The translations under genes and the position numbers were made by a program. The notes beneath the pieces are model-generated. The model worked only from the letters and a program-made list of their open reading frames with translations. It searched no databases and had not been told where the DNA came from. Below are positions 5,346-18,160 of a stretch of DNA of 64,000 nucleotides, piece after piece; within the stretch, counting starts at the first letter, position 1; each line of letters starts with the position of its first letter. The DNA is from a bacterium (GTDB taxonomy: Bacteria; Chloroflexota; Dormibacteria; Aeolococcales; Bog-877): contig JAKATL010000001.1 of NCBI GenBank assembly GCA_021827985.1, positions 45,108 through 109,107 on the forward strand, in the 5' to 3' direction.

Positions 5346-6356
5346 TCAGGCTGCGTATGCCCGGAGCGCCGGATCGGCGTCCAACGGCCCCCTGTCGAAG
5401 CCCCGCATTCTGGAGCGGACCAGGCCCGCAGCCCCAATCATGGCGGCGTTGTCGGTGCACAGGGAGGGGGCCGGAATCACCACTCTGGCCACCTTGGCGA
5501 AGCGCTCGCGGACAGTCTCCCGGAGAAGTCCATTGCTGGCCACCCCACCCGCCACCACCACCTGGGAGACACCAGCGCTCTCTGCTGCGGCCTCCAGCTG
5601 GGCGACCAGCGTCTCCACCACGGCAAGCCGGAAACCGGCCGCAACGTCCGCTACCACTTGGGGATCCGTGGGGTCCAGCCCGCGCAGCAGGTACAGCACC
5701 GCCGTCTTCAGGCCGCTGAACGAGAAGTTGAAGTCGGGCAGCAGAGGCCGTGGCAGGCGGTACCGGCCGGGGTTGCCGGAACCGGCCGCCCGGTCGATCT
5801 CCGGCCCACCGGGGTAGGCCAGCCCCAGCATCCTGGCCACCTTGTCGAAGGCCTCGCCAGCCGCATCGTCGCGGGTGGCACCCATGAGCACAACGTCGTC
5901 GTCAGCCCGGTAATGAATGAGGTCCGTGTGCCCCCCGCTGACCACCAGGGCCACGAAGGGTGGCTCCAAGTCGGGCTCCGCGATCTTGGCCGCCAGGACA
6001 TGCCCGGTCATGTGGTTCACACCCACCAGGGGGAGACCGGTGGCCAGCGCCAGCCCCTGGGCGTAACTGACCCCCACAGCCAGGCAGCCGACCAGCCCCG
6101 GCCCCCTGGTGACCGCGATCCCGTCCACCCCGCGCAGGCCCCCTCGGATCGGCTCCAGCGCCTGGTCGACCACCCCCCCGAGCCGCTCGAGGTGCATCCG
6201 GGCAGCCAGCTCCGGCACCACCCCGCCGTAGCGGGCGTGGGCATGAGCCTGTGACGCTACGACTGAAGAGTGGATGGTCCAGTCGGACTCGACTACGGCC
6301 GCGGCGGTCTCGTCGCAGGAGGTCTCAATCGCCAGCAGCCTCACCGGCCGGGCCAC
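5346..6356 (-). CDS. tsaD: t6A synthase TsaD
   Basis: LAIETSCDETAAAV, GGVVPELAARMH, GPGL, HxxxH, SGGHT, FSFSGLKT, CTDNAAMI. Confidence 0.97.
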   Translation of the reverse strand: MARPVRLLAIETSCDETAAAVVESDWTIHSSVVASQAHAHARYGGVVPELAARMHLERLGGVVDQALEPIRGGLRGVDGIAVTRGPGLVGCLAVGVSYAQGLALATGLPLVGVNHMTGHVLAAKIAEPDLEPPFVALVVSGGHTDLIHYRADDDVVLMGATRDDAAGEAFDKVARMLGLAYPGGPEIDRAAGSGNPGRYRLPRPLLPDFNFSFSGLKTAVLYLLRGLDPTDPQVVADVAAGFRLAVVETLVAQLEAAAESAGVSQVVVAGGVASNGLLRETVRERFAKVARVVIPAPSLCTDNAAMIGAAGLVRSRMRGFDRGPLDADPALRAYAA

Positions 6357-7965: not shown

Positions 7966-8994
7966 CTAGAAGTGCCGGAAGCCCCGGCCCGACAGCGCCA
8001 CCTCGGGCCCATCGGGGTGCTCCAGGAGGCGCACGCCGTCCCCCGGGCACACCGTTCCGACGACCGAGACGCCGGCTCCTCCCGACAGTGAACTGAGGTT
8101 CCGCGCCAGCGGTTCGGGGAGGCAGACGAGAAGCTCGTAGTCCTCTCCCCCCGCAGCACCCAGTTGGAGCAACTCCGCCGGAAAGAAGTGCTCCAACTCG
8201 TGCTCCAGCGGCAGGTGATCGGCCCAAAGCTCCAACTGGCACGAGCTGGCCGCCGCCAGCCGGGCGGCGTCGACCAGAAGTCCGTCACTCAGATCGGTCA
8301 TGGCGTGCGCTCCAGCGGCCCGGAGCCGCTGGCCCTCGGCGAGGCGGGCGACGGGAGCCACCAGGCGACGGCGCCAACTCTCCGGCGGGACCCTCCCAGT
8401 CTCCAGGAGACGGAGGGCAGCGGCAGCCCCACCCAGGCGCCCGGTGACCGCCACCAAGTCGCCGGGCAGGGCACCAGAGAGGCGCACCGCCTCGCCCGGG
8501 GGGCCGCTGCCCAGAACGGTGACGGCGATCGTCAGGGGGCCATCCGTGGAGCTGACGTCGCCCCCGGCCAGCAGCGCCCCGTCCCGGCGGGCTGCCTCCA
8601 CCATCCCCTCCTGAATGCCCAGAATGGTGCCCTCGAAGGTGTCGGGAGAACAGATCAGGCAGGCGACCCCGAGGTCGGCACGAAAACCCATCGCAGCCAG
8701 ATCCGAGGCCGCGGCACTCCAGGCCTTGACTCCCACCTCCCAGGGGCTCTGAAAGGAGCGCAGGAAGTCAACCCTCTCCACCAGCGAGTCCGTGGTGACG
8801 GCCAGCGCCCGTCCATCCAGATCCCAGACGGCAGCGTCATCGCCCGGCCCGACCGCCAGCCTCCCATCGCCGGTGGCCAGCCCCACCAGCGCCGCCAGCA
8901 ACCCCGTCTCACCGACTGCGCTGAGGCGCCGGCCGTGTGGCGGTGCCCAGCCGCGCTGATCCGGACGGGGCTCCGGGATGGCCGGTTCAGCCAA
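7966..8994 (-). CDS. thiL: Thiamine-monophosphate kinase ThiL
   Basis: GPGDDAAV, TTDSLVE.VDF, SDLAAMG, GGD, DLSDGL, GGEDYEL; TTG start overlapping thiG stop inferred. Confidence 0.92.
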   Translation of the reverse strand: MAEPAIPEPRPDQRGWAPPHGRRLSAVGETGLLAALVGLATGDGRLAVGPGDDAAVWDLDGRALAVTTDSLVERVDFLRSFQSPWEVGVKAWSAAASDLAAMGFRADLGVACLICSPDTFEGTILGIQEGMVEAARRDGALLAGGDVSSTDGPLTIAVTVLGSGPPGEAVRLSGALPGDLVAVTGRLGGAAAALRLLETGRVPPESWRRRLVAPVARLAEGQRLRAAGAHAMTDLSDGLLVDAARLAAASSCQLELWADHLPLEHELEHFFPAELLQLGAAGGEDYELLVCLPEPLARNLSSLSGGAGVSVVGTVCPGDGVRLLEHPDGPEVALSGRGFRHF

Positions 8995-9778
8995 CCGGCA
9001 GTCCAGCCGCGGGAGAACTCGCCCCGAAACCGCGCCGCCCCTCGCCAGCCTCCCCAGCCAGGCCGGCCCAATGGGCCCGGCGCCCGGCCTCGACCGCGGC
9101 CGCGAAGGCCCGCGCCATCTCCACGGGATTCCTGGCCCGGGCGATCCCCGTGTTAACCAGGACTCCGGCCGCACCCCATTCCATGACCCGGAGAGCGTCA
9201 GAGGGAGCGCCCAAGCCGGCGTCCACGATCACCGGTACAGGGCATTCCTCGATGATGAGACGGATGTTGTGGGGGTTCAGCACCCCGAGAGTGGAGCCTA
9301 TGGGCGCCGCGCCGGGCATCACCGCGGCCGCCCCCGCCTCAGCCAGCCGCAACGCCAGCGCCACATCGTCACTCGTGTACGGAAGAACTGTATAGCCCTC
9401 GGCCACCAGCCTCGAGGTGGCCTCGAAGGTCGCCAGGGGGTCCGGCAAGAGGCTGGCTTCGTGCCCCACCACCTCCACCTTGATGAAGTCCGAGAGGCCG
9501 GCCGCCCGGGCGAGGTGCGCGAGCCGGATCGCCTCCTCGGCTGAGCCGGCGCCTGCGGTGTTGGGCAGGAGGTGATAGCGGGCGAGGTCCAGCCCCTCAA
9601 GCTCCGACCTGCGATCGCCGTCGAGGTGGAGCCGGCGTACGGCGAGGGTGATCATCTCCGCCCCGGAGGCGGCGATCGATTGGGCCAGCACCTGCGCCGA
9701 CGGGAACTTCCCGGTCCCGTGGATGAGGCGCGAGCCAAGGGTGGCGGCCCCCAGGTGCAGCCTGTCCGCTTCCGTCAT
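8987..9778 (-). CDS. thiG: Thiazole synthase ThiG
   Basis: SRLIHGTGKF, LPNTAG, FIKVEV, LLPDP, VIVDAGLG, VLVNT. Confidence 0.95.
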   Translation of the reverse strand: MTEADRLHLGAATLGSRLIHGTGKFPSAQVLAQSIAASGAEMITLAVRRLHLDGDRRSELEGLDLARYHLLPNTAGAGSAEEAIRLAHLARAAGLSDFIKVEVVGHEASLLPDPLATFEATSRLVAEGYTVLPYTSDDVALALRLAEAGAAAVMPGAAPIGSTLGVLNPHNIRLIIEECPVPVIVDAGLGAPSDALRVMEWGAAGVLVNTGIARARNPVEMARAFAAAVEAGRRAHWAGLAGEAGEGRRGFGASSPAAGLPVG

Positions 9779-9779
9779 C

Positions 9780-10658
9780 TCACCCTCCTCCCACGAAGTG
9801 GACCACCTCGACCACGGCCCCCTCGCGCACCACATCGGTGGCCAGTTGCTCCCCGGGGATGATCCGCCCATCGACCTCCACGGCGACCCCTGAGGGCCCT
9901 ACCCCCAGCCGGGCCAAGAGCTCCATCACCGTCTCACCGGGTGGTGACTTGCGGGGTTCGCCATTCAACTTGATCCAGCGCCATGAGGTGGCCGCCTGGG
10001 CCTCCCGCCGGAGCCTCTGGGCGGCCAGCCTAGGGTCTGGAGCCGAACAGACGGCACGCACTACCGCAACCATGTCTGCCCCGGCCTCGATAGCCGAGGC
10101 ACCCTCGTCGAGTCCCCCTATGGCCACCACCGGGACCCGGGAGACCTGCGCGGCGGCGGTGACCTGCTGGAACCCCACCGCGACGCCCTCTGGCTTGGTC
10201 GGGGTGGCTCGCACTGGTCCGGCGGCGATGTAGTCCAGGGGAAGCAGCTGAGCCTGCAGGGCCTGCTCCGAATTGTGGGTCGAGAGCCCAATCAGCGGCC
10301 GTTCCCCGAGCCGCTCTCTGGCCTCCTGGACGCCGGTGTCATCCTGACCGAGGTGGACGCCATCCGTCCGCGCTGCCAGGGCTAGGTCGATGTGGTCGTT
10401 GACCAGGAAGAGGGCCCCGCCCCGCCGGCAGATCGCCTGGAGGGAACGGGCCAGATCCACCAGATCTGTCCATGATTCGCGCTTGCGACGCAGCTGCACC
10501 AGATCGGCTCCTCCCGCCACCGCCGCCTGGACCAGGCCGGGCAGGCTACCCAAGGGGCTCAAGTCATCAGTGACCACGTAGAGCCGCGAGTCCTGGAGGC
10601 GGGTGCGCAGCTGTTCCGATCCGAGCTCGAAATCCGTGTCCAGCTCGCCCATGGGCAT
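9780..10658 (-). CDS. thiE: ThiE (thiamine-phosphate synthase) fused to C-terminal ThiS sulfur carrier
   Basis: ThiE motifs (QLR, VNDH, GVHLGQDD, IGLSTH, TPTK, VAIGG) continue in frame into IKLNGE...VAVEVDG.II...VEVVHFVGGG-stop. Confidence 0.92.
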   Translation of the reverse strand: MPMGELDTDFELGSEQLRTRLQDSRLYVVTDDLSPLGSLPGLVQAAVAGGADLVQLRRKRESWTDLVDLARSLQAICRRGGALFLVNDHIDLALAARTDGVHLGQDDTGVQEARERLGERPLIGLSTHNSEQALQAQLLPLDYIAAGPVRATPTKPEGVAVGFQQVTAAAQVSRVPVVAIGGLDEGASAIEAGADMVAVVRAVCSAPDPRLAAQRLRREAQAATSWRWIKLNGEPRKSPPGETVMELLARLGVGPSGVAVEVDGRIIPGEQLATDVVREGAVVEVVHFVGGG

Positions 10659-10683: not shown

Positions 10684-13128
10684 TCAGTCCCCCCAGCGCG
10701 GTTCGCGCGGGACCCTGGGAAGGATCTGGGTCACTAGTTCGTAGTTGAGCACCTGCAGTCGGTCGGCAACCTGCTCAACAGTAAGCTCCGCACCCTGCTG
10801 TCTCCCGATCAGCACCACCTCATCGCCCCGAGCCACCTGCGGGTCCCCGGTAACGTCCACCATGGCCATGTCCATGCACACGTCGCCGGCTAGGGGGTGT
10901 TCCTGACCGCGGATGAGTACCGATCCCCAGGTGGTTGGACCTCTTCGGAAGCCGTCACCATATCCCACCGGTATGGTGGCGATCCGCGACCGCCTGGGGG
11001 CGCGGAAGCGGTCCCCGTACCCCACGTACTCCCCCTCGTCCACCCAGCGGACCTGGGCGACAGTGGTCTTGAAGGCCAGCGCCGGCCGTCGGCGACGCCC
11101 GTCCGCAGTCCGCAGCCCCAGAAGCTCACCCCCCAGCCGCACCATCTCGAAGCGGGCATCCGGCCGGGTGACCCAGCCGGAGGAGCTGGCGACGTGGCGG
11201 AGCCGAAACGGCGCGTCACCGACCTCATCCAGGGCCCTGTGGAAGCGCTGCAGCTGGACCCCGGCCGCCGCCGCGTCCTCCCCCTTTCTCAGGTGGGTAT
11301 AGATCCCCTCGAGATCCACCGCGCCCGCCGCGAAGTCCACCAGCTGGCGCACGCCCTCCGGGGGGACCCCCAGCCGGCTCATCCCGGTGTCGACCTTGAG
11401 GTGGGCGATCGCTCGTCTTCCGAACCGCCCCCCGGCGGCGGCGAGCGCCTCGAGCACCTCGCGATCAAACGCGGTGACGGTGAGTCCCATCCGCACCGCG
11501 AGCTCGACCTGGTCGGGCGGGGTGTAGCCGAGCACCAGGCAGGGCGAGGTGATGCCGGACTCCCGCAACTCCGCCGCTTCGGCCAGGGTTGCCGTGGCGA
11601 CCCATGAGGCTCCAGAACCAAGGGCGGCCCGGGCCACCTGGACGGCCCCGTGGCCGTAGGCGTCCGCCTTGACCACGGCCATGAGCTTCACCCCGGCCAG
11701 CTGGTCGAGCACCTCTCTGACGTTCTCGGCCACGGCCGCCAGGTCGACCTCCACCCAGGTTGGCCGCCGGGGTGACCGGAATCGCAGGACCGCCCGACCC
11801 GGCTCCGGGCGCACCATGGGAGTGCCCGGCGGGGCCAGAGCTGTCACCAGCCGCTCCATCCTGGACCCGGAGGTCCCCTTGATCAGCACGCTCCCACCGT
11901 CCTTCAGGATCTGGCGGGCGCGGCCCTGGGCACTGAGGAAGCCGATTCCGCCGTCCCCTCCGGGAGCCGCTGACGGGAGCACGCGGGCCACCTCGGCGTA
12001 TGGCCAGCGGGGAAGCCTTCGGGCCTCCCGGCCGCCGCCGAGCAGCGCTAGGCGGGGCGGGGGCAGGCGGCCGAGAGCCGAGCCGGCCAGGCCCAGCGAC
12101 CCCGGGGACATGTCGAAGGAGTCGTCCAGCAGCCGACCCGTCCCCCGTGTCGGCAGAAGCCGCAGGCGGCCTGGGAGCGGAGCCACCTCCGCCAGACCCT
12201 CAACAGCTCGATCGAGGTCCTCACCGAGGGCGAGTAGGCACCCCACGGCGGCCCCGAACCCAACCTCAGCCAGGCGGGGATGGAGATCTGTCCGCACTGT
12301 CCACGTCCGCTCCCCTGCCCTCACCCGGCAGGGCCACCGTTCGGGCCAGGCCGAGCCCGCACCCTCCGGGCCGACCTCAACGTCAGCTCCGCTTCCCAGC
12401 GGGCCGAACCAAATCGCCGACGACCCCCAGCGTCCGAGCAGCGCAGCCGACTGGAGGGGCGCTACCAGCCTGGGCATCGGGCCCCACATGCGCCAGACCT
12501 GAGCCGCCAGCGCCCGCGACGAGCTCCAGTACAGGCTCCTAGCGTCATGGAGCGAGGTTAGACAGACCAGCTCCGGCTGGATCATCCGCGCGAGCCGCCT
12601 CTCCTCGAGCACCCCATCGGCCACCACCTCCATCACCGCGGGGCCGGTTAGCTGGCCCTTGGCCTCGGAGAGCGCCAGGGGGATCCCCAGCGAGTCGTTG
12701 CGATCCCCATTGGCCACCACCCGCTCCCCGGAGGCCCTCCCCCACGCCGCCACCAGGCAGGCCTGTGCGGTGCTCTTGCCCAGGCTGCCGGCCACCGCCA
12801 CCGTCCTCAGCTGGCGCACCCGCCACTGGCCGAAGACCTCCAGCGCCTCCCGGACGTCGGGAACCAGGATCGCCGTCTGCTCCAGGTCGGGAGGCAAGCC
12901 GAGCTCCTCCTGGGGACGGTCCACGAGGATGCCCAGGGCGCCGCGGCGGAGTGCGTCCCCCACATGGGCATGGCCGTCGCCGGTAGCGCTCCTGAGAGCG
13001 GCAAAGAGCTCCCCACCACTGAGGTTGCGGGTGTCGTGCCCGATGGCTGTGAACGCCCGCGGGCCCCAGGACAGGACCTCGGGCCGGACGCTTGAGAGCG
13101 CCTCCAGGAGCTCGTCCAGCTCCAGCAT
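10684..13128 (-). CDS. alr: MurF-like domain fused to alanine racemase
   Basis: N-terminal Mur ligase-like part (DTR, GELFAAL, DGHAH, GSLGKST); C-terminal Alr (VVKADAYGHG, HLKVDTGMSRLG, VGYG, CMD, NYE). Confidence 0.88.
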   Translation of the reverse strand: MLELDELLEALSSVRPEVLSWGPRAFTAIGHDTRNLSGGELFAALRSATGDGHAHVGDALRRGALGILVDRPQEELGLPPDLEQTAILVPDVREALEVFGQWRVRQLRTVAVAGSLGKSTAQACLVAAWGRASGERVVANGDRNDSLGIPLALSEAKGQLTGPAVMEVVADGVLEERRLARMIQPELVCLTSLHDARSLYWSSSRALAAQVWRMWGPMPRLVAPLQSAALLGRWGSSAIWFGPLGSGADVEVGPEGAGSAWPERWPCRVRAGERTWTVRTDLHPRLAEVGFGAAVGCLLALGEDLDRAVEGLAEVAPLPGRLRLLPTRGTGRLLDDSFDMSPGSLGLAGSALGRLPPPRLALLGGGREARRLPRWPYAEVARVLPSAAPGGDGGIGFLSAQGRARQILKDGGSVLIKGTSGSRMERLVTALAPPGTPMVRPEPGRAVLRFRSPRRPTWVEVDLAAVAENVREVLDQLAGVKLMAVVKADAYGHGAVQVARAALGSGASWVATATLAEAAELRESGITSPCLVLGYTPPDQVELAVRMGLTVTAFDREVLEALAAAGGRFGRRAIAHLKVDTGMSRLGVPPEGVRQLVDFAAGAVDLEGIYTHLRKGEDAAAAGVQLQRFHRALDEVGDAPFRLRHVASSSGWVTRPDARFEMVRLGGELLGLRTADGRRRRPALAFKTTVAQVRWVDEGEYVGYGDRFRAPRRSRIATIPVGYGDGFRRGPTTWGSVLIRGQEHPLAGDVCMDMAMVDVTGDPQVARGDEVVLIGRQQGAELTVEQVADRLQVLNYELVTQILPRVPREPRWGD

Positions 13129-14375
13129 CAGGGGTGGGCCCTTCCCTCCAGCCAGAGCCGGGCCGCCTCCTGGGTCTCCACCAATTCGTCCGCGACCTCG
13201 GAGGCTAGCAGTCCGGCGCGGCCCCTCCGGTCAGCGAGAAGGGTTCCCGCGGCGGCGTGCAGAAAGACTCCGGCCCGGGCCGCGTCTGCGGCGCCATGCC
13301 CCTGGGCCATCAGGGCCCCGATCAATCCCGCCAGGACGTCCCCGGCACCCCCAATGGCCAGGGCGGAGGTGGCGTGGGCGTCGCGCCAAAGTTCGCCCGA
13401 GGGCTCGGCCACCAGGCTCCCGGCACCCTTCAAAACCACCACCGCCGAGAGTCCCGCCGCCAGTTTGCGGGCCGCCGCCTCACGATCCGCCTGGACTGCC
13501 GCGGCGGTCGTCCCCAGAAGCCGGGCGGCCTCCAGGGGGTGGGGGGTGAGCACCGATCCAGGTGGCAACAGGGTGCGCAGGTCAGGGGTGCGGCTCACGG
13601 CGTTGAGGGCATCGGCATCGGCCACCAACCCCGCCCGGGCGGAGCGGAAAACGGTGGCCACCAGTTCGCCCACCCCCGCACTGTCGCCGAGGCCCGGGCC
13701 TGCCACCACCACCTCCCCCTGTACGTCCGCCAAGTGCCGGGCGAGGTCGGAGGCGGAGTAGTGTCCGGACTCCACCGGAAGGGGCACTCGGATCACCTCC
13801 GGCGGCAACCCTGCGCCAGGATGATCAATCGCCACGACACACTTGACCTTTCCCGCCCCCCCGCGGAGTGCCCCCCGGCAGGCGAGTTCCGCCGCCCCGG
13901 GAAATTGAGGGCTCCCCGCCACCACCAGGACCGTACCGAACGTGCCCTTGTGACCCGCCGGTGGCCGCGAGGGCAGGACCACCCGCTCGGGCACCGGCAA
14001 GGGGAGGCTGCTCGCCGTCATCACGGCCACGGCCACCGCGACACCGGCGTCGTGGGTGAGGGAGATCTCCAGCCCGGGAACTGGGCGCCCGAGCACCAGC
14101 GCCTCCGGTGCTCCCCCGCGGCGATGGCGGACCGAGATCTGCGGGTAGAGCGGGAGAGGCAGGCCGAGACTGCCGTGCACCTTCCGCACGGCCTCCTTGG
14201 CTGCCCAACGCACGGCCAAGCGCTCCGGCCGACCTGCGCAGTACTCGACCTCTTCCGGGCTGAACAACTTCTCGGCGAAGCGGGGCCTCCTCGCCAGGAG
14301 CCGGGCGATGCGGGCCACCTCGGCGACGTCAACACCTGTGGCCACGGGCGGGAGCCGGCTCCCTGGCAGGATCAC
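13128..14375 (-). CDS. acpS: Holo-ACP synthase AcpS fused to NAD(P)HX dehydratase NnrD
   Basis: GVDVAEVARI...RWAAKEA...SLTHD followed in frame by HKGTFG.VLVVAGS..FPGAA, DADALN, LTPH..EAARL, VLKG, GGAGDVLAG. Confidence 0.9.
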   Translation of the reverse strand: MILPGSRLPPVATGVDVAEVARIARLLARRPRFAEKLFSPEEVEYCAGRPERLAVRWAAKEAVRKVHGSLGLPLPLYPQISVRHRRGGAPEALVLGRPVPGLEISLTHDAGVAVAVAVMTASSLPLPVPERVVLPSRPPAGHKGTFGTVLVVAGSPQFPGAAELACRGALRGGAGKVKCVVAIDHPGAGLPPEVIRVPLPVESGHYSASDLARHLADVQGEVVVAGPGLGDSAGVGELVATVFRSARAGLVADADALNAVSRTPDLRTLLPPGSVLTPHPLEAARLLGTTAAAVQADREAAARKLAAGLSAVVVLKGAGSLVAEPSGELWRDAHATSALAIGGAGDVLAGLIGALMAQGHGAADAARAGVFLHAAAGTLLADRRGRAGLLASEVADELVETQEAARLWLEGRAHP

Positions 14376-16204
14376 TCCACGGTTACGGACTTGGCCAGGT
14401 TGCGCGGCCGGTCCACATCGAGCCCACGGCTGACGGCGGCGTGGTAGGCGAGCTGCTGCCCCACCAGTACGTCCACCATTGGAGAGACTATCTCAGACAC
14501 CCGGGGAACCTCGACCAGATGGTCCGCGAGGTGGTCCAGACTGTGGTCTCCCTCGCTCACCACCGCCAGCACCGGACTCTGGCGAGCGCGGACTTCCTGC
14601 ACGTTGCTGCGCACCTTCTCCCGGGTCGGGCTCTCGGTGGCAAAGGCCACCACCGGCAGCGAAGGATTGAGCAGCGCTATAGGCCCGTGCTTCAGCTCAC
14701 CCGCCGGGTAAGCCTCCGCGTGCAGGTAGGAGACCTCCTTCAGTTTGAGCGCGGCCTCCAGCGCCACCGGATAGCCGTATCCCCTGCCCATGTAGAGCAC
14801 GCTCCGGTGCTCTGCCAACCAGGCCCCAAGTGGAGCGATCCGCCCCTCCTCGCTCAGAACCCGCTGTTGGGCCTCCGTCACGGAGCGGAGGCCCGAGGCG
14901 AGCCGGCTTCGGTCCCCCGGCCCCAGCGTACCCCGGGCGCTGCCTAGTCGCATCGCCAGCAGCAGCGAGACGGCCACCTGGTTCAGGAAGGTCTTGGTCG
15001 CCACGACACAGATCTCCGGTCCAGCGTGGAGGTTGACCATGGCGTCAGCCTCCAGCGCCAGGGTGCTGCCCAGGACGTTGCTCACCGCGAGCAGGTAGCT
15101 CCCCTGCTCCTTGGCCCGACGGGCCGCCGCCAGGGTGTCGGCGGTCTCCCCGGACTGGGAGATGGCGATCGTCAGCGTGTGGCGGTCCACAGCCTGCGGC
15201 CGATACCTCCACTCGGAGGCCACCTCGACGGCGGCGGGGATGCCGGCTAGCTCCTCGATGGTGTGCTTGGCCAGCAGGCCAGCGTAGAAGGCCGAGCCGG
15301 CCGCCACGATCTGCACCCGGTTGAATGCCCGAAGCGCCTCGTCTCCGACGTCCCAGTCGGCGAACTCGACCCGCCCGTCCGCCAGCAGTCGACCCCGAAG
15401 GGCGTTCTCCAGCGCCGCCGGCTGCTCATGCATCTCCTTGGACATGAAATTGGGGTACCCGCCACGCTCGGCCTGGAGTACGTCCCACTCCACGCGGACC
15501 ACGCGCGGCGCCGTCTCACTCCCGTCCGCGATGGAGGTGACCACCGGCCCCACCGGACTCAACACCACCATGTCACCCTCACCCAGCACCAGCGCCTGCT
15601 TGGTGTAGGGGATGATGGCGGTGAGGTCAGAGCTGAGGAACCACTCGTCCGCCCCGACCCCCACCACCAGCGGGGCGTTGAGACGGGCTCCGATGAGGGT
15701 GTCGGGGTCGGTCGAGCTGAGAACCACCACGGCGTAGGCGCCGCGAAGGCGGCGCAGCGCCCTCCTGGTGGCCGCCACCAGGTCCCCCTCGTAGTAGCTC
15801 TCGATCAGATGGGGCAGCACCTCGGTGTCGGTCTCCGAGCGGAAGACGTGCCCCTGCTCCGCCAGCTCCTGGCGCAGCTCGGAGAAGTTCTCGATGATGC
15901 CGTTGTGGATGACGAAGAACCGGTGGCTGCAATCGGCCTGCGGATGGGCGTTCTCAAAGGTCGGGCCCCCGTGGGTGGCCCACCTGGTGTGGCCCATGCC
16001 CACCTTGCCGGCTATCTCCTCTCCGTCGATACGGTCGAGGAGCGCCTGGACCTTGCCGGCGGCCTTGACCGCCACCGGCACCCCTCCCGTGCCCAGCACC
16101 ACCACGCCGGCCGAGTCATAGCCGCGGTACTCCAGCCGGCGCAGGCTGTCCAGTAGGACCGGGGCCGCCGGGCGCGGTCCGAGGTAGCCGATGATGCCGC
16201 ACAT
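14372..16204 (-). CDS. glmS: Glutamine-fructose-6-phosphate aminotransferase
   Basis: MCGIIG, LEYRGYDSAG, HTRWATHG, SQSGETADT, ELKHGP, PRNLAKSVTVE. Confidence 0.98.
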   Translation of the reverse strand: MCGIIGYLGPRPAAPVLLDSLRRLEYRGYDSAGVVVLGTGGVPVAVKAAGKVQALLDRIDGEEIAGKVGMGHTRWATHGGPTFENAHPQADCSHRFFVIHNGIIENFSELRQELAEQGHVFRSETDTEVLPHLIESYYEGDLVAATRRALRRLRGAYAVVVLSSTDPDTLIGARLNAPLVVGVGADEWFLSSDLTAIIPYTKQALVLGEGDMVVLSPVGPVVTSIADGSETAPRVVRVEWDVLQAERGGYPNFMSKEMHEQPAALENALRGRLLADGRVEFADWDVGDEALRAFNRVQIVAAGSAFYAGLLAKHTIEELAGIPAAVEVASEWRYRPQAVDRHTLTIAISQSGETADTLAAARRAKEQGSYLLAVSNVLGSTLALEADAMVNLHAGPEICVVATKTFLNQVAVSLLLAMRLGSARGTLGPGDRSRLASGLRSVTEAQQRVLSEEGRIAPLGAWLAEHRSVLYMGRGYGYPVALEAALKLKEVSYLHAEAYPAGELKHGPIALLNPSLPVVAFATESPTREKVRSNVQEVRARQSPVLAVVSEGDHSLDHLADHLVEVPRVSEIVSPMVDVLVGQQLAYHAAVSRGLDVDRPRNLAKSVTVE

Positions 16205-16277: not shown

Positions 16278-17279
16278 CTAGGGGGTGGCGCTGGGAGACG
16301 GTGTCGGCGTGGGCGCCGCGATCGGCGCCACGTCCACCACCACCGTGACCGTGGTCGAGGACGAGGTGACCCCCGCCGGCAACACCAGCGGGATCTGGAA
16401 GGTGGTGGTCTTGGTGAGCCCGCCCAGGTTCACCGTCTCGGTATCGATGGCCGTGAGGGCGGTGATGGTGCCCGAGGGGCCGGTCACCACCACCGTGAGC
16501 GGAGTGGACTGAATGCCCACGACCTCGTATCCGGAGGCCGGCTGCCCCGAGGTGACCACATAGACCACGACCCCGCGGTCCGAGGTCTGGGAGGAGATGG
16601 CCGCGTTTACGGTGACCACCTGGGGGGTGAAGCTGATGTAGCTCTTGAGGTCTCCCTCGTGAAGCATGTCAACGGTGGCGCTCTGCGCCACCGAGCTCTT
16701 GGCGTTGGCCAGTGAGATGGTGGCCACCGCCTCCAGCTTGGTGATGATGGTGCTCGGCGCGCGCACCGATACCGTGGCCGGGCTCACAGTGGTCTTGGAG
16801 CTCACCCAGGAGTACCCTGCCGGCGGCAGCTGGCCCGACGCCACCTGGACGTGGACCGGAAGGTCAGCCGTGACCATTCTGTCCACGGTCACCGAGACCT
16901 TGGCCGGGTGAGACCAGAGCTCGATCAGGCTGGGGTCACCGTTGGAGACCCGGAGTGGCACCTGGTACCGCCCTGGGCCCTTCACCGAGGAGAGGTCCAC
17001 GGAGGCGCTGAGCGCGGAGACCACCCGCGGGGAATGAACGTTGGAGCGTATTCCGGCCACCTTGAGGGTCACCTCCCCGAGGCCCTGGGCGCCAGGGAAC
17101 GAGGGCAGGACCACCAGCCCACTGCCAAGCCCGAGAACCTGCACCGGCACCTGGACGCTGGCGAACGCCGGAGGATTGCGGGCGTACACCACCCCCACCC
17201 ACATGCCACAGGCCACCAGCAGCGCCACCGTCTTGAGCCGCCAGTTGCCGCCCAGGAGCCGCCCGAGACCCGCTGCCAT
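16278..17279 (-). CDS. cdaR: CdaR (YbbR-domain) regulator of diadenylate cyclase
   Basis: NWRLKTVALLVACGMWV N-terminal TM, repeated beta-rich YbbR-like units, Pro/Thr tail; ATG overlaps cdaA stop (TGATG). Confidence 0.82.
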   Translation of the reverse strand: MAAGLGRLLGGNWRLKTVALLVACGMWVGVVYARNPPAFASVQVPVQVLGLGSGLVVLPSFPGAQGLGEVTLKVAGIRSNVHSPRVVSALSASVDLSSVKGPGRYQVPLRVSNGDPSLIELWSHPAKVSVTVDRMVTADLPVHVQVASGQLPPAGYSWVSSKTTVSPATVSVRAPSTIITKLEAVATISLANAKSSVAQSATVDMLHEGDLKSYISFTPQVVTVNAAISSQTSDRGVVVYVVTSGQPASGYEVVGIQSTPLTVVVTGPSGTITALTAIDTETVNLGGLTKTTTFQIPLVLPAGVTSSSTTVTVVVDVAPIAAPTPTPSPSATP

Positions 17280-18160
17280 CAGTTCGGCCCCACCACCGAC
17301 GGTTCTTCGCGATGCCCACCCCGGCGCAGGCGCATCGCCCGCCGGTGTCCGTCGAATGTGGCCAGCCCCAGGAAGGTGGCCAGCAGCGTCGCCAGCTGCT
17401 CGGGTCCCAGTCCGGACTCCAGCCGGCCTCCCAGGGCCCAGCTGATCCGCCCAGTCTCCTCCGAGACGACAACCACCCCAGCGTCCGTCTCCCGGCTGAG
17501 ACCCACCGCCGCGAGATGCCGGGTGCCGCTGCCCCGGGTGCGCAGATCCTGCTCGGCCAAGGGCAGAACGCAACCGGCGGCGACCAGGCGGCCCTGGTTG
17601 ATGACCGCCGCCCCGTCGTGGAGAGGGGACTTGTAGGTGAACACGGTCACCAGCGCCTCCGCGCTGAGGATCGCATCCAACCGAACGCCTGTGCTCACCA
17701 CCTCTCCCAGTCCGATCGCTCCCTGCACCACGATCAACGCTCCGGTGGCCGTCTCCCCCAGCCGCACCGCGGCCCGCACCACCTCGTCCACCTCTAGTCG
17801 GAGGGCCGCGGTATCGGGCGCCAGCAGCCCGCGACGCAAGCGCCCGAGGCGACCCATCTGGTCAAGTGCGCGCCTCAGCTCCGGCTGGAACAGAATGATC
17901 ACCCCGATCAGGATCACCTGCCCGCCGTTGGTGTAGATGAACTTGAGGACCGGCAGGTCCAGGATCGAGGCCAACGCTCCCAGGGCCCCGATCAGCAAAA
18001 GGCCGACCAGGATCTGCATGGCCTGGGTACCCCGGATCAGGATCAGGATCCTGTAAATGAGGAAGGTGACGATGGCGATGTCGAGGGCGTCCTGCCAGCC
18101 CACCGTCTGCAGCATGACCCGCAGGGTCTCGCCGAGGTTGAGTCCGGACAGGACCAGCAC
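17279..18160 (-). CDS. cdaA: Diadenylate cyclase CdaA
   Basis: 3 TM segments, FQPELRRAL, SPLHDGA, LPL, GTRH(L)AA, VSEETG.IS; start uncertain. Confidence 0.92.
   Translation of the reverse strand: MLVLSGLNLGETLRVMLQTVGWQDALDIAIVTFLIYRILILIRGTQAMQILVGLLLIGALGALASILDLPVLKFIYTNGGQVILIGVIILFQPELRRALDQMGRLGRLRRGLLAPDTAALRLEVDEVVRAAVRLGETATGALIVVQGAIGLGEVVSTGVRLDAILSAEALVTVFTYKSPLHDGAAVINQGRLVAAGCVLPLAEQDLRTRGSGTRHLAAVGLSRETDAGVVVVSEETGRISWALGGRLESGLGPEQLATLLATFLGLATFDGHRRAMRLRRGGHREEPSVVGPN

Follow-up and report, generated by a model that had tools for sequence, protein, structure and literature searches.

Genes for the acyl carrier protein synthase AcpS and for YjeF (Nnr), which joins the NAD(P)HX epimerase NnrE to the dehydratase NnrD, are known neighbours in bacteria: clustering of acpS with yjeF has been reported in seven phyla and of yjeF with alr in six (Niehaus et al. 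2018, PMC5938422). Of the former it was written that its 'significance is unclear', the neighbourhood links were not assignable to the epimerase as opposed to the dehydratase, and the only published suggestion for the association of acpS with nnr is a tie to NADPH-consuming fatty-acid synthesis (PMC5938422). Here we describe a gene in which acpS and nnrD are joined into one open reading frame (ORF) with no nnrE. It was noticed in a stretch of 64,000 nucleotides, here called the window, from the Dormibacteria contig JAKATL010000001.1; all positions below count from the first letter of the window unless another contig is named.

The fused ORF occupies 13128-14375 on the reverse strand (415 codons, with a GTG start at 14373-14375 and a TGA stop at 13128-13130). 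Read along that strand it encodes an AcpS-type (group I) 4'-phosphopantetheinyl transferase (PPT) domain (residues 11-119; 14019-14345), an interdomain linker of 12 residues, TASSLPLPVPER (residues 120-131; 13983-14018), and an NnrD domain (NAD(P)HX dehydratase, YjeF_C/Carb_kinase; residues 132-415; 13131-13982). We found that Pfam ACPS (PF01648) matches residues 14-102 (E 9.9e-12, 45.3 bits vs a cutoff of 25) and that Carb_kinase/NAD(P)H-hydrate dehydratase (PF01256) matches residues 149-398 over nearly its whole profile (positions 1-240 of 242; E 6.5e-46, 157.2 bits vs a cutoff of 27). With NCBIfam, the AcpS domain passes TIGR00556 (48.4 bits vs 45.35) and is covered from residue 11 to 119 by the holo-ACP synthase model NF000832 (profile positions 3-114 of 116), where its 55.6 bits lie below the cutoff of 107; it also stays below the TIGR00516 equivalog cutoff (42.6 bits vs 59.8). 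The NnrD domain is hit by TIGR00196 (yjeF_cterm) at residues 132-399 (profile 10-272 of 277; 178.4 bits vs 129.85), and NF007856 (bifunctional NnrE/NnrD; PRK10565) is matched in its C-terminal half only (profile 242-495 of 510; 150.5 bits vs 703). Pfam finds no YjeF_N (PF03853) in the 415 amino acids (aa). The domains detected there are ACPS and Carb_kinase only, with no carrier-protein-containing synthase, which sets the protein apart from the integrated (type III) PPT enzymes. The first-pass annotation of this DNA, which had read about 118 aa of AcpS fused in frame to a full NnrD without NnrE, is borne out by these matches: this is a fusion with two complete domains.

Residues of B. subtilis AcpS with established, structure-derived roles in binding Mg2+ and coenzyme A (CoA) have counterparts in the fusion: D16 (14328-14330), E61 (14193-14195), K65 (14181-14183) and H108 (14052-14054) align to D8, E58, K62 and H105 (PDB 1F80/1F7L). 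In the NnrD half the motifs HKGTFG (142-147), GPGLG (226-230), DADAL (253-257), TPHPxE (277-282), LKG (315-317) and GGxGDVLxG (342-350; D346 at 13338-13340) all align with the characterised dehydratases Tm0922 and YxkO. Across 86 fusion proteins, the most distant at 45% identity, E61, K65, H108 and the majority of NnrD motif residues do not vary; D16 and the few other NnrD motif positions are at least 90% conserved. An AlphaFold model of the fusion has a predicted local distance difference test score (pLDDT) of 92.4 and a predicted template modelling score of 0.78; residues 11-120 reach pLDDT 90-98, and the linker about 75. In Foldseek searches the C-terminal domain of the model superposes on T. 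maritima Tm0922 and B. subtilis YxkO with template modelling (TM) scores up to 0.82 (3RPH), and the N-terminal domain gives TM scores (by target) of 0.72-0.78 to 2JBZ, 1F7L, 1F7T, 2WAT and 5XUH (AcpS of S. coelicolor and B. subtilis, and the PPT of fungal fatty acid synthase, FAS). The same structure search returned no PDB entry spanning both domains.

We read the AcpS half, with scores under the NCBIfam equivalog cutoffs but over those of Pfam and TIGR00556, as divergent yet functional, and infer that the fusion combines the activities of a holo-ACP synthase and an ADP-dependent NAD(P)HX dehydratase. One might suppose instead that one domain has lost catalysis and serves as a scaffold, or has taken on a new role, such as a ribokinase-fold domain acting on a CoA- or pantetheine-related ligand. 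The AcpS scores below the NCBIfam equivalog cutoffs would suit such a change, and a B. subtilis YxkO crystal has reportedly been soaked with CoA (PDB 3RQ5), hence the NnrD site may take ADP-containing ligands. The YxkO paper (PMC4231035) makes no mention of oligomers, CoA or epimerase. Against this supposition, the Mg-binding and catalytic residues of AcpS and the NnrD motifs shared with Tm0922 and YxkO are kept throughout the 86 fusions, and TIGR00196 is passed at 178 vs 130, so that a dead or repurposed domain seems to us very unlikely.

The fusion is not a one-off. All of the 120 best relatives in a collection of 5.8 billion proteins carry both PF01648 and PF01256 (93% to 46% identity, 403-440 aa), and the named ones among them are nearly all metagenome-assembled genomes (MAGs) of Candidatus Dormibacterota (Dormibacteraeota). 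When 1.84 billion cluster representatives (50% identity) were searched with a profile, 44 of the 150 best carried both domains, and cluster look-ups place Ca. Dormibacter spiritus and Ca. Dormiibacter inghamiae among the carriers. Others are Firmicutes, namely the cultured Levyella massiliensis (WP_019189571.1, 445 aa), Gallicola sp., Peptoniphilaceae and Clostridia MAGs, whose proteins were confirmed by Pfam as ACPS plus Carb_kinase without YjeF_N. The architecture is present in 239 of the 361 proteins collected. It is conserved across Dormibacterota and occurs also in some Firmicutes.

The rarity that the first-pass annotation saw in the fusion was therefore overstated, as it is fixed across Dormibacterota, turns up among the best cluster representatives and in cultured Firmicutes, and carries a UniRef label: 'Multifunctional fusion protein' for the D. 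inghamiae protein (the NCBI name for all is 'NAD(P)H-hydrate dehydratase'). That annotation had named an architecture both widespread and described as one of the things that would speak against its reading; widespread it is, in Dormibacterota and Firmicutes, but described it is not, as a search of the literature for an AcpS/NnrD (YjeF) fusion found no paper describing the architecture. The fusion is undescribed in the literature found, yet abundant in public data and auto-annotated by UniProt, and it is built from two textbook domains already known as genomic neighbours.

In a neighbour-joining tree built from NnrD domains, the Firmicute fusions group in a single clade (26 representatives) that is not sister to the Dormibacterota fusions; the tree is crude and has no bootstrap support, and we use it only for the statement that these two groups are not closest relatives. 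The Dormibacterota fusions do not form one clade in it, and four further fusions pair with NnrE-NnrD proteins. The Firmicute fusion is probably of separate origin, which on the branching of this tree would make at least two independent origins. Some records sit oddly with these groupings. At three loci (L002, L005, L006) the Dormibacterota-type fusion and argF-cdaA-cdaR-glmS synteny occur in MAGs that go by the Acidobacteriota names Candidatus Angelobacter, Acidoferrum or Acidiferrales, and some of the 120 best relatives are filed under Verrucomicrobiae or Nanopelagicaceae; these taxonomic assignments seem doubtful. One protein (P0247, 645 aa) has AcpS followed by only the first ~90 residues of NnrD and then ~430 residues with no Pfam match; it may stem from a frameshift in the gene call or be another kind of fusion.

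A possible objection is that an assembly, binning or frameshift artefact joined two adjacent genes, and the first-pass annotation had called for a read-level check of the junction. We found the window sequence in mine-drainage and sediment metagenome runs from several studies. First, in one run (X1) a single contig of 2528 bases spans 12900-14600 with no differences. Second, in two runs from different studies (X2, X5) a unitig of 472 bases, 13852-14323, crosses the domain boundary, again with no differences. Third, a variant strain in a further run (X9) crosses the junction with 22 substitutions and no insertions or deletions (indels). Of the 20 inter-strain substitutions listed (13902-14112), 17 fall at third codon positions of the fusion frame (coordinates divisible by three), and we therefore infer that purifying selection extends through the linker. 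Metatranscriptomes of the same study hold almost no window sequence; two contigs from a related strain (depth 2-3) cross the junction, which is weak evidence.

What could be said for an artefact is that a related long-read contig carries the two halves in different frames. This is a 2.17-Mb Dormibacterota contig (L009) in which a 1-base deletion at 6300-6320 of that contig puts the fusion in two frames; the deletion falls in the codon for the invariant His108 (SLT-HD motif), away from the domain boundary, and is probably an assembly indel error, not a real split. Against an artefact stand the identical junction in independent runs of several studies, the divergent strain that crosses it without indels, and more than 200 proteins of the same architecture from independent assemblies. 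We reject this explanation as practically out of the question; assembly error at the junction is excluded.

The linker varies among relatives in both sequence and length, from about 10 to 45 aa and up to 97 aa in one Firmicute-type cluster. Three Firmicute-type fusions (P0137, P0310, P0311) have linkers of 86-97 aa between AcpS and NnrD, without similarity to YjeF_N or any other detected domain. The codon of Met119 at the end of the AcpS domain (ATG, 14019-14021, reverse strand) lies next to the linker and is preceded by ...GCGGTGGCCGTGGCCGTG. It raises the alternative that the genes are fused at the DNA level only, with a start at or near the linker (the ATG at 14021 or a nearby GTG) giving free NnrD besides or instead of the fusion protein. 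The position is suggestive, as this in-frame ATG stands exactly at the AcpS domain end with several in-frame GTG codons before it, and a product begun at Met119 would hold the whole NnrD domain. But the residue at this position is L, F or H in other fusion members, and the preceding sequence has no Shine-Dalgarno- or GGAGG-like site. Moreover the frame stays open through the variable linker in 239 proteins, which would be needless if the parts were made separately. The second start proposed in the first-pass annotation does not hold up on either count, and we reject Met119 as a conserved internal start. This strain may make a separate NnrD product, though not as a family feature, and fusion at the DNA level only is quite unlikely as an account of the gene.

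For the origin of the single ORF we turn to synteny. From a set of species-representative genomes we sorted 80 related loci by gene arrangement; they are among the matches listed, in which taxonomic spread is under-sampled, and the counts that follow hold for these loci. Seven carry the fusion as a single ORF, and in one it is frameshifted. In 13, drawn among others from Dehalococcoidia and other Chloroflexota, Clostridia, Thermodesulfobacteriota and Myxococcota, acpS is a gene of its own and ends 6-138 bases ahead of nnrE-nnrD. In another 38, nnrE-nnrD has no acpS in its flank; in one, acpS lies 3.3 kb upstream of nnrE-nnrD; and the remaining 20 contain a stand-alone nnrD, none of them with an adjacent acpS. 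Thus acpS lies directly upstream of 13 of the 52 nnrE-nnrD loci vs none of the 20 stand-alone nnrD loci (Fisher p = 0.014), which supports an origin by in-frame loss of nnrE. The earlier proposal that deletion of nnrE joined its neighbours fits this pattern, and the simplest history for these sequences, and the most likely one, is that an ancestral acpS|nnrE-nnrD arrangement lost its nnrE segment in frame.

We also asked for NnrE in the surroundings of the gene. An HMM (hidden Markov model) of YjeF_N found no match at E<=10 in the 64-kb window and 8 Dormibacterota loci (about 13 kb each), with 52 of the 80 control loci positive. Loss of NnrE is not exceptional: the dehydratase occurs alone in 168 genomes (Niehaus et al. 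2018, PMC5938422), epimerisation proceeds spontaneously with a t1/2 of 40 min (PMC5938422), and the epimerase-dead E. coli mutant K192A has normal NAD(P)HX levels, the epimerase being largely dispensable for repair (PMC5938422). If nnrE is truly absent genome-wide, a whole phylum would be added to the evidence that NnrE is unneeded in NAD(P)HX repair.

Our overall explanation, to which we assign a probability of roughly 0.8, is one polypeptide with two housekeeping activities that arose by in-frame loss of nnrE and has been kept as a single ORF. The N-terminal AcpS domain would move 4'-phosphopantetheine from CoA onto apo-ACP, and the C-terminal NnrD domain would dehydrate (S)-NAD(P)HX to NAD(P)H, using ADP; (R)-NAD(P)HX would presumably be dealt with by spontaneous epimerisation or by an unlinked gene. 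The fusion would then stand in Dormibacterota as ortholog of the adjoining acpS and nnr genes found between glmS and alr in many phyla. In an ancestral acpS|nnrE-nnrD, an in-frame loss would have removed nnrE (YjeF_N) along with the stop codon of acpS, and the resulting ORF would since have been kept by purifying selection, translationally coupled to glmS upstream and alr downstream. Fusion would make synthesis of the two enzymes equal and co-regulated, and the selective gain may be at least stoichiometric co-expression.

Four observations weigh against this explanation. First, the AcpS domain falls under the full-length equivalog cutoffs (NF000832, TIGR00516), though it is above those of Pfam and TIGR00556. 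Second, no linker holds a YjeF_N remnant, even those of 86-97 aa (85-sequence HMM, --max, E<=10; chance matches inside NnrD only), so that it is synteny which argues for the deletion route. Third, no Dormibacterota genome that keeps acpS|nnrE-nnrD was identified; the nearest named non-fusion NnrD relatives belong to Dehalococcoidia, Limnochordia/Bacillota and Clostridiales, and are uninformative on whether any Dormibacterota retain nnrE-nnrD. The fourth concerns quaternary structure. AcpS is active as a trimer with its active sites at the interfaces (PDB 1F7L/1F80), and NnrD is a tetramer (PDB 3RPH/2AX3). With a linker of just 12 residues between the two domains, the chains would have to build a network or a large body of 12 or 24 subunits, unless one of the domains oligomerises in an altered way. 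A cage-like body of 12 or 24 subunits or an open network may form because a linker of ~12 residues cannot satisfy the trimer and tetramer symmetries in a small closed oligomer, and it could co-localise ACP activation and NAD(P)H repair near NADPH-consuming enzymes of fatty-acid synthesis. We consider such an assembly unlikely. If real, it would give acpS-yjeF clustering a physical basis, and selection for the assembly, beyond co-expression, would explain why the fusion recurs in at least two phyla.

The fusion lies in a one-strand run, argF-cdaA-cdaR(YbbR)-glmS-[fusion]-alr-thiE(S)-thiG. Its upstream neighbour in this operon-like run is glmS (GATase and two SIS domains; 14372-16204, reverse strand), the TGA stop of which overlaps the GTG start of the fusion in the sequence GTGA (14372-14375, reverse strand), implying translational coupling. 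At the other end the fusion TGA stop shares one base with the ATG of the next gene (TGATG, 13126-13130, reverse strand), which encodes a MurF-like N-terminal half fused to alanine racemase (814 aa, racemase at residues 455-808; 10684-13128, reverse strand). The order argF-cdaA-cdaR-glmS-fusion-alr-thiE-thiG is kept at three Dormibacterota loci (L001, L002, L005) and partly at L003-L007 and L009. Taken together with the best relatives and the runs in which the sequence occurs, this order makes a Dormibacterota member of a mine-drainage community the most likely source of the window. Of the order glmS-acpS-nnrE/nnrD-alr-tsaE, which the first-pass annotation took as the usual one, the part from glmS through the fusion to alr is present here; tsaE is not beside alr, and thiE-thiS follows.

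Several neighbours have peculiarities of their own. In the MurF-like half of the 814-aa protein, what can be detected is the N-domain of a Mur ligase and no more than the first ~90 positions of the middle domain; the P-loop GSLGKST is present, and residues ~200-455 have no match. NF008897 ('bifunctional MurF/alanine racemase') scores 283 vs a cutoff of 804, far below. L001, L002 and L005 have only the Alr half (residues ~440-809), and the MurF-like extension is lineage-specific, possibly degenerate. Directly upstream of thiG, the gene at 9780-10658 (reverse strand) encodes ThiE (TMP-TENI, residues 26-203) with a C-terminal ThiS (residues 229-292, GG end), a second fusion in the run; the ThiE-ThiS match is contiguous in L001 and in two pieces in L002 and L005. 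A thiL-like ORF (AIRS/AIRS_C; 7966-9174, reverse strand), taken from its first start codon, overlaps thiG (8987-9871, reverse strand) by about 190 bases; its AIRS domain begins at residue 111, so that the true start is probably further downstream. As in Firmicutes, cdaA (DAC domain) and cdaR (YbbR), at 16278-18160 on the reverse strand, precede glmS, here without glmM between; the YbbR ORF as listed overlaps cdaA by ~295 bases, and its start is probably downstream.

Current names hide half of this protein, as annotation as 'NAD(P)H-hydrate dehydratase' (NCBI) or 'yjeF'-like (JGI) leaves out AcpS. Metabolic reconstructions of Dormibacterota, Levyella, Gallicola and other Peptoniphilaceae may then call holo-ACP synthase missing where it may sit in the fusion gene. 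A recurrent fusion that keeps the dehydratase and drops the epimerase would also assign the link with AcpS to NnrD.

Among known systems, the closest is Nnr itself (E. coli YjeF, T. maritima Tm0922; NnrE-NnrD). The NnrD domain of the fusion is homologous over its full length, with 35% identity to Tm0922 residues 230-490 and the same motifs and fold, and the gene occupies the same genomic position beside acpS and alr. The N-terminal partner differs, being AcpS (about 120 aa) in the fusion and the YjeF_N epimerase (about 215 aa) in Nnr, and the fusion has no epimerase domain. Each half also aligns end to end, catalytic residues included, with a stand-alone enzyme, B. subtilis YxkO (PDB 1KYH/3RPH) or AcpS (1F7L/1F80), and YxkO is likewise a dehydratase without a fused epimerase domain; here the two form one polypeptide, whereas no stand-alone nnrD locus in our sample had acpS adjacent.

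Two more distant systems offer parallels. The PPT domain of the alpha subunit of fungal type I FAS (PDB 2UV8, 2WAS/2WAT), which the N-terminal domain of the fusion matches in sequence and fold, is likewise an AcpS fold within a larger enzyme of mismatched symmetry; but the FAS synthase carries the ACP substrate of its own PPT, while the partner in the fusion is an unrelated cofactor-repair enzyme and there is no ACP domain. In plant NnrE-PPOX (Arabidopsis At5g49970), too, one member of the NAD(P)HX repair pair shares a chain with an enzyme from a different cofactor pathway, which was taken as a 'Rosetta stone' hint (PMC5938422); there the epimerase is joined to vitamin B6 salvage, and here the dehydratase is joined to CoA/ACP.

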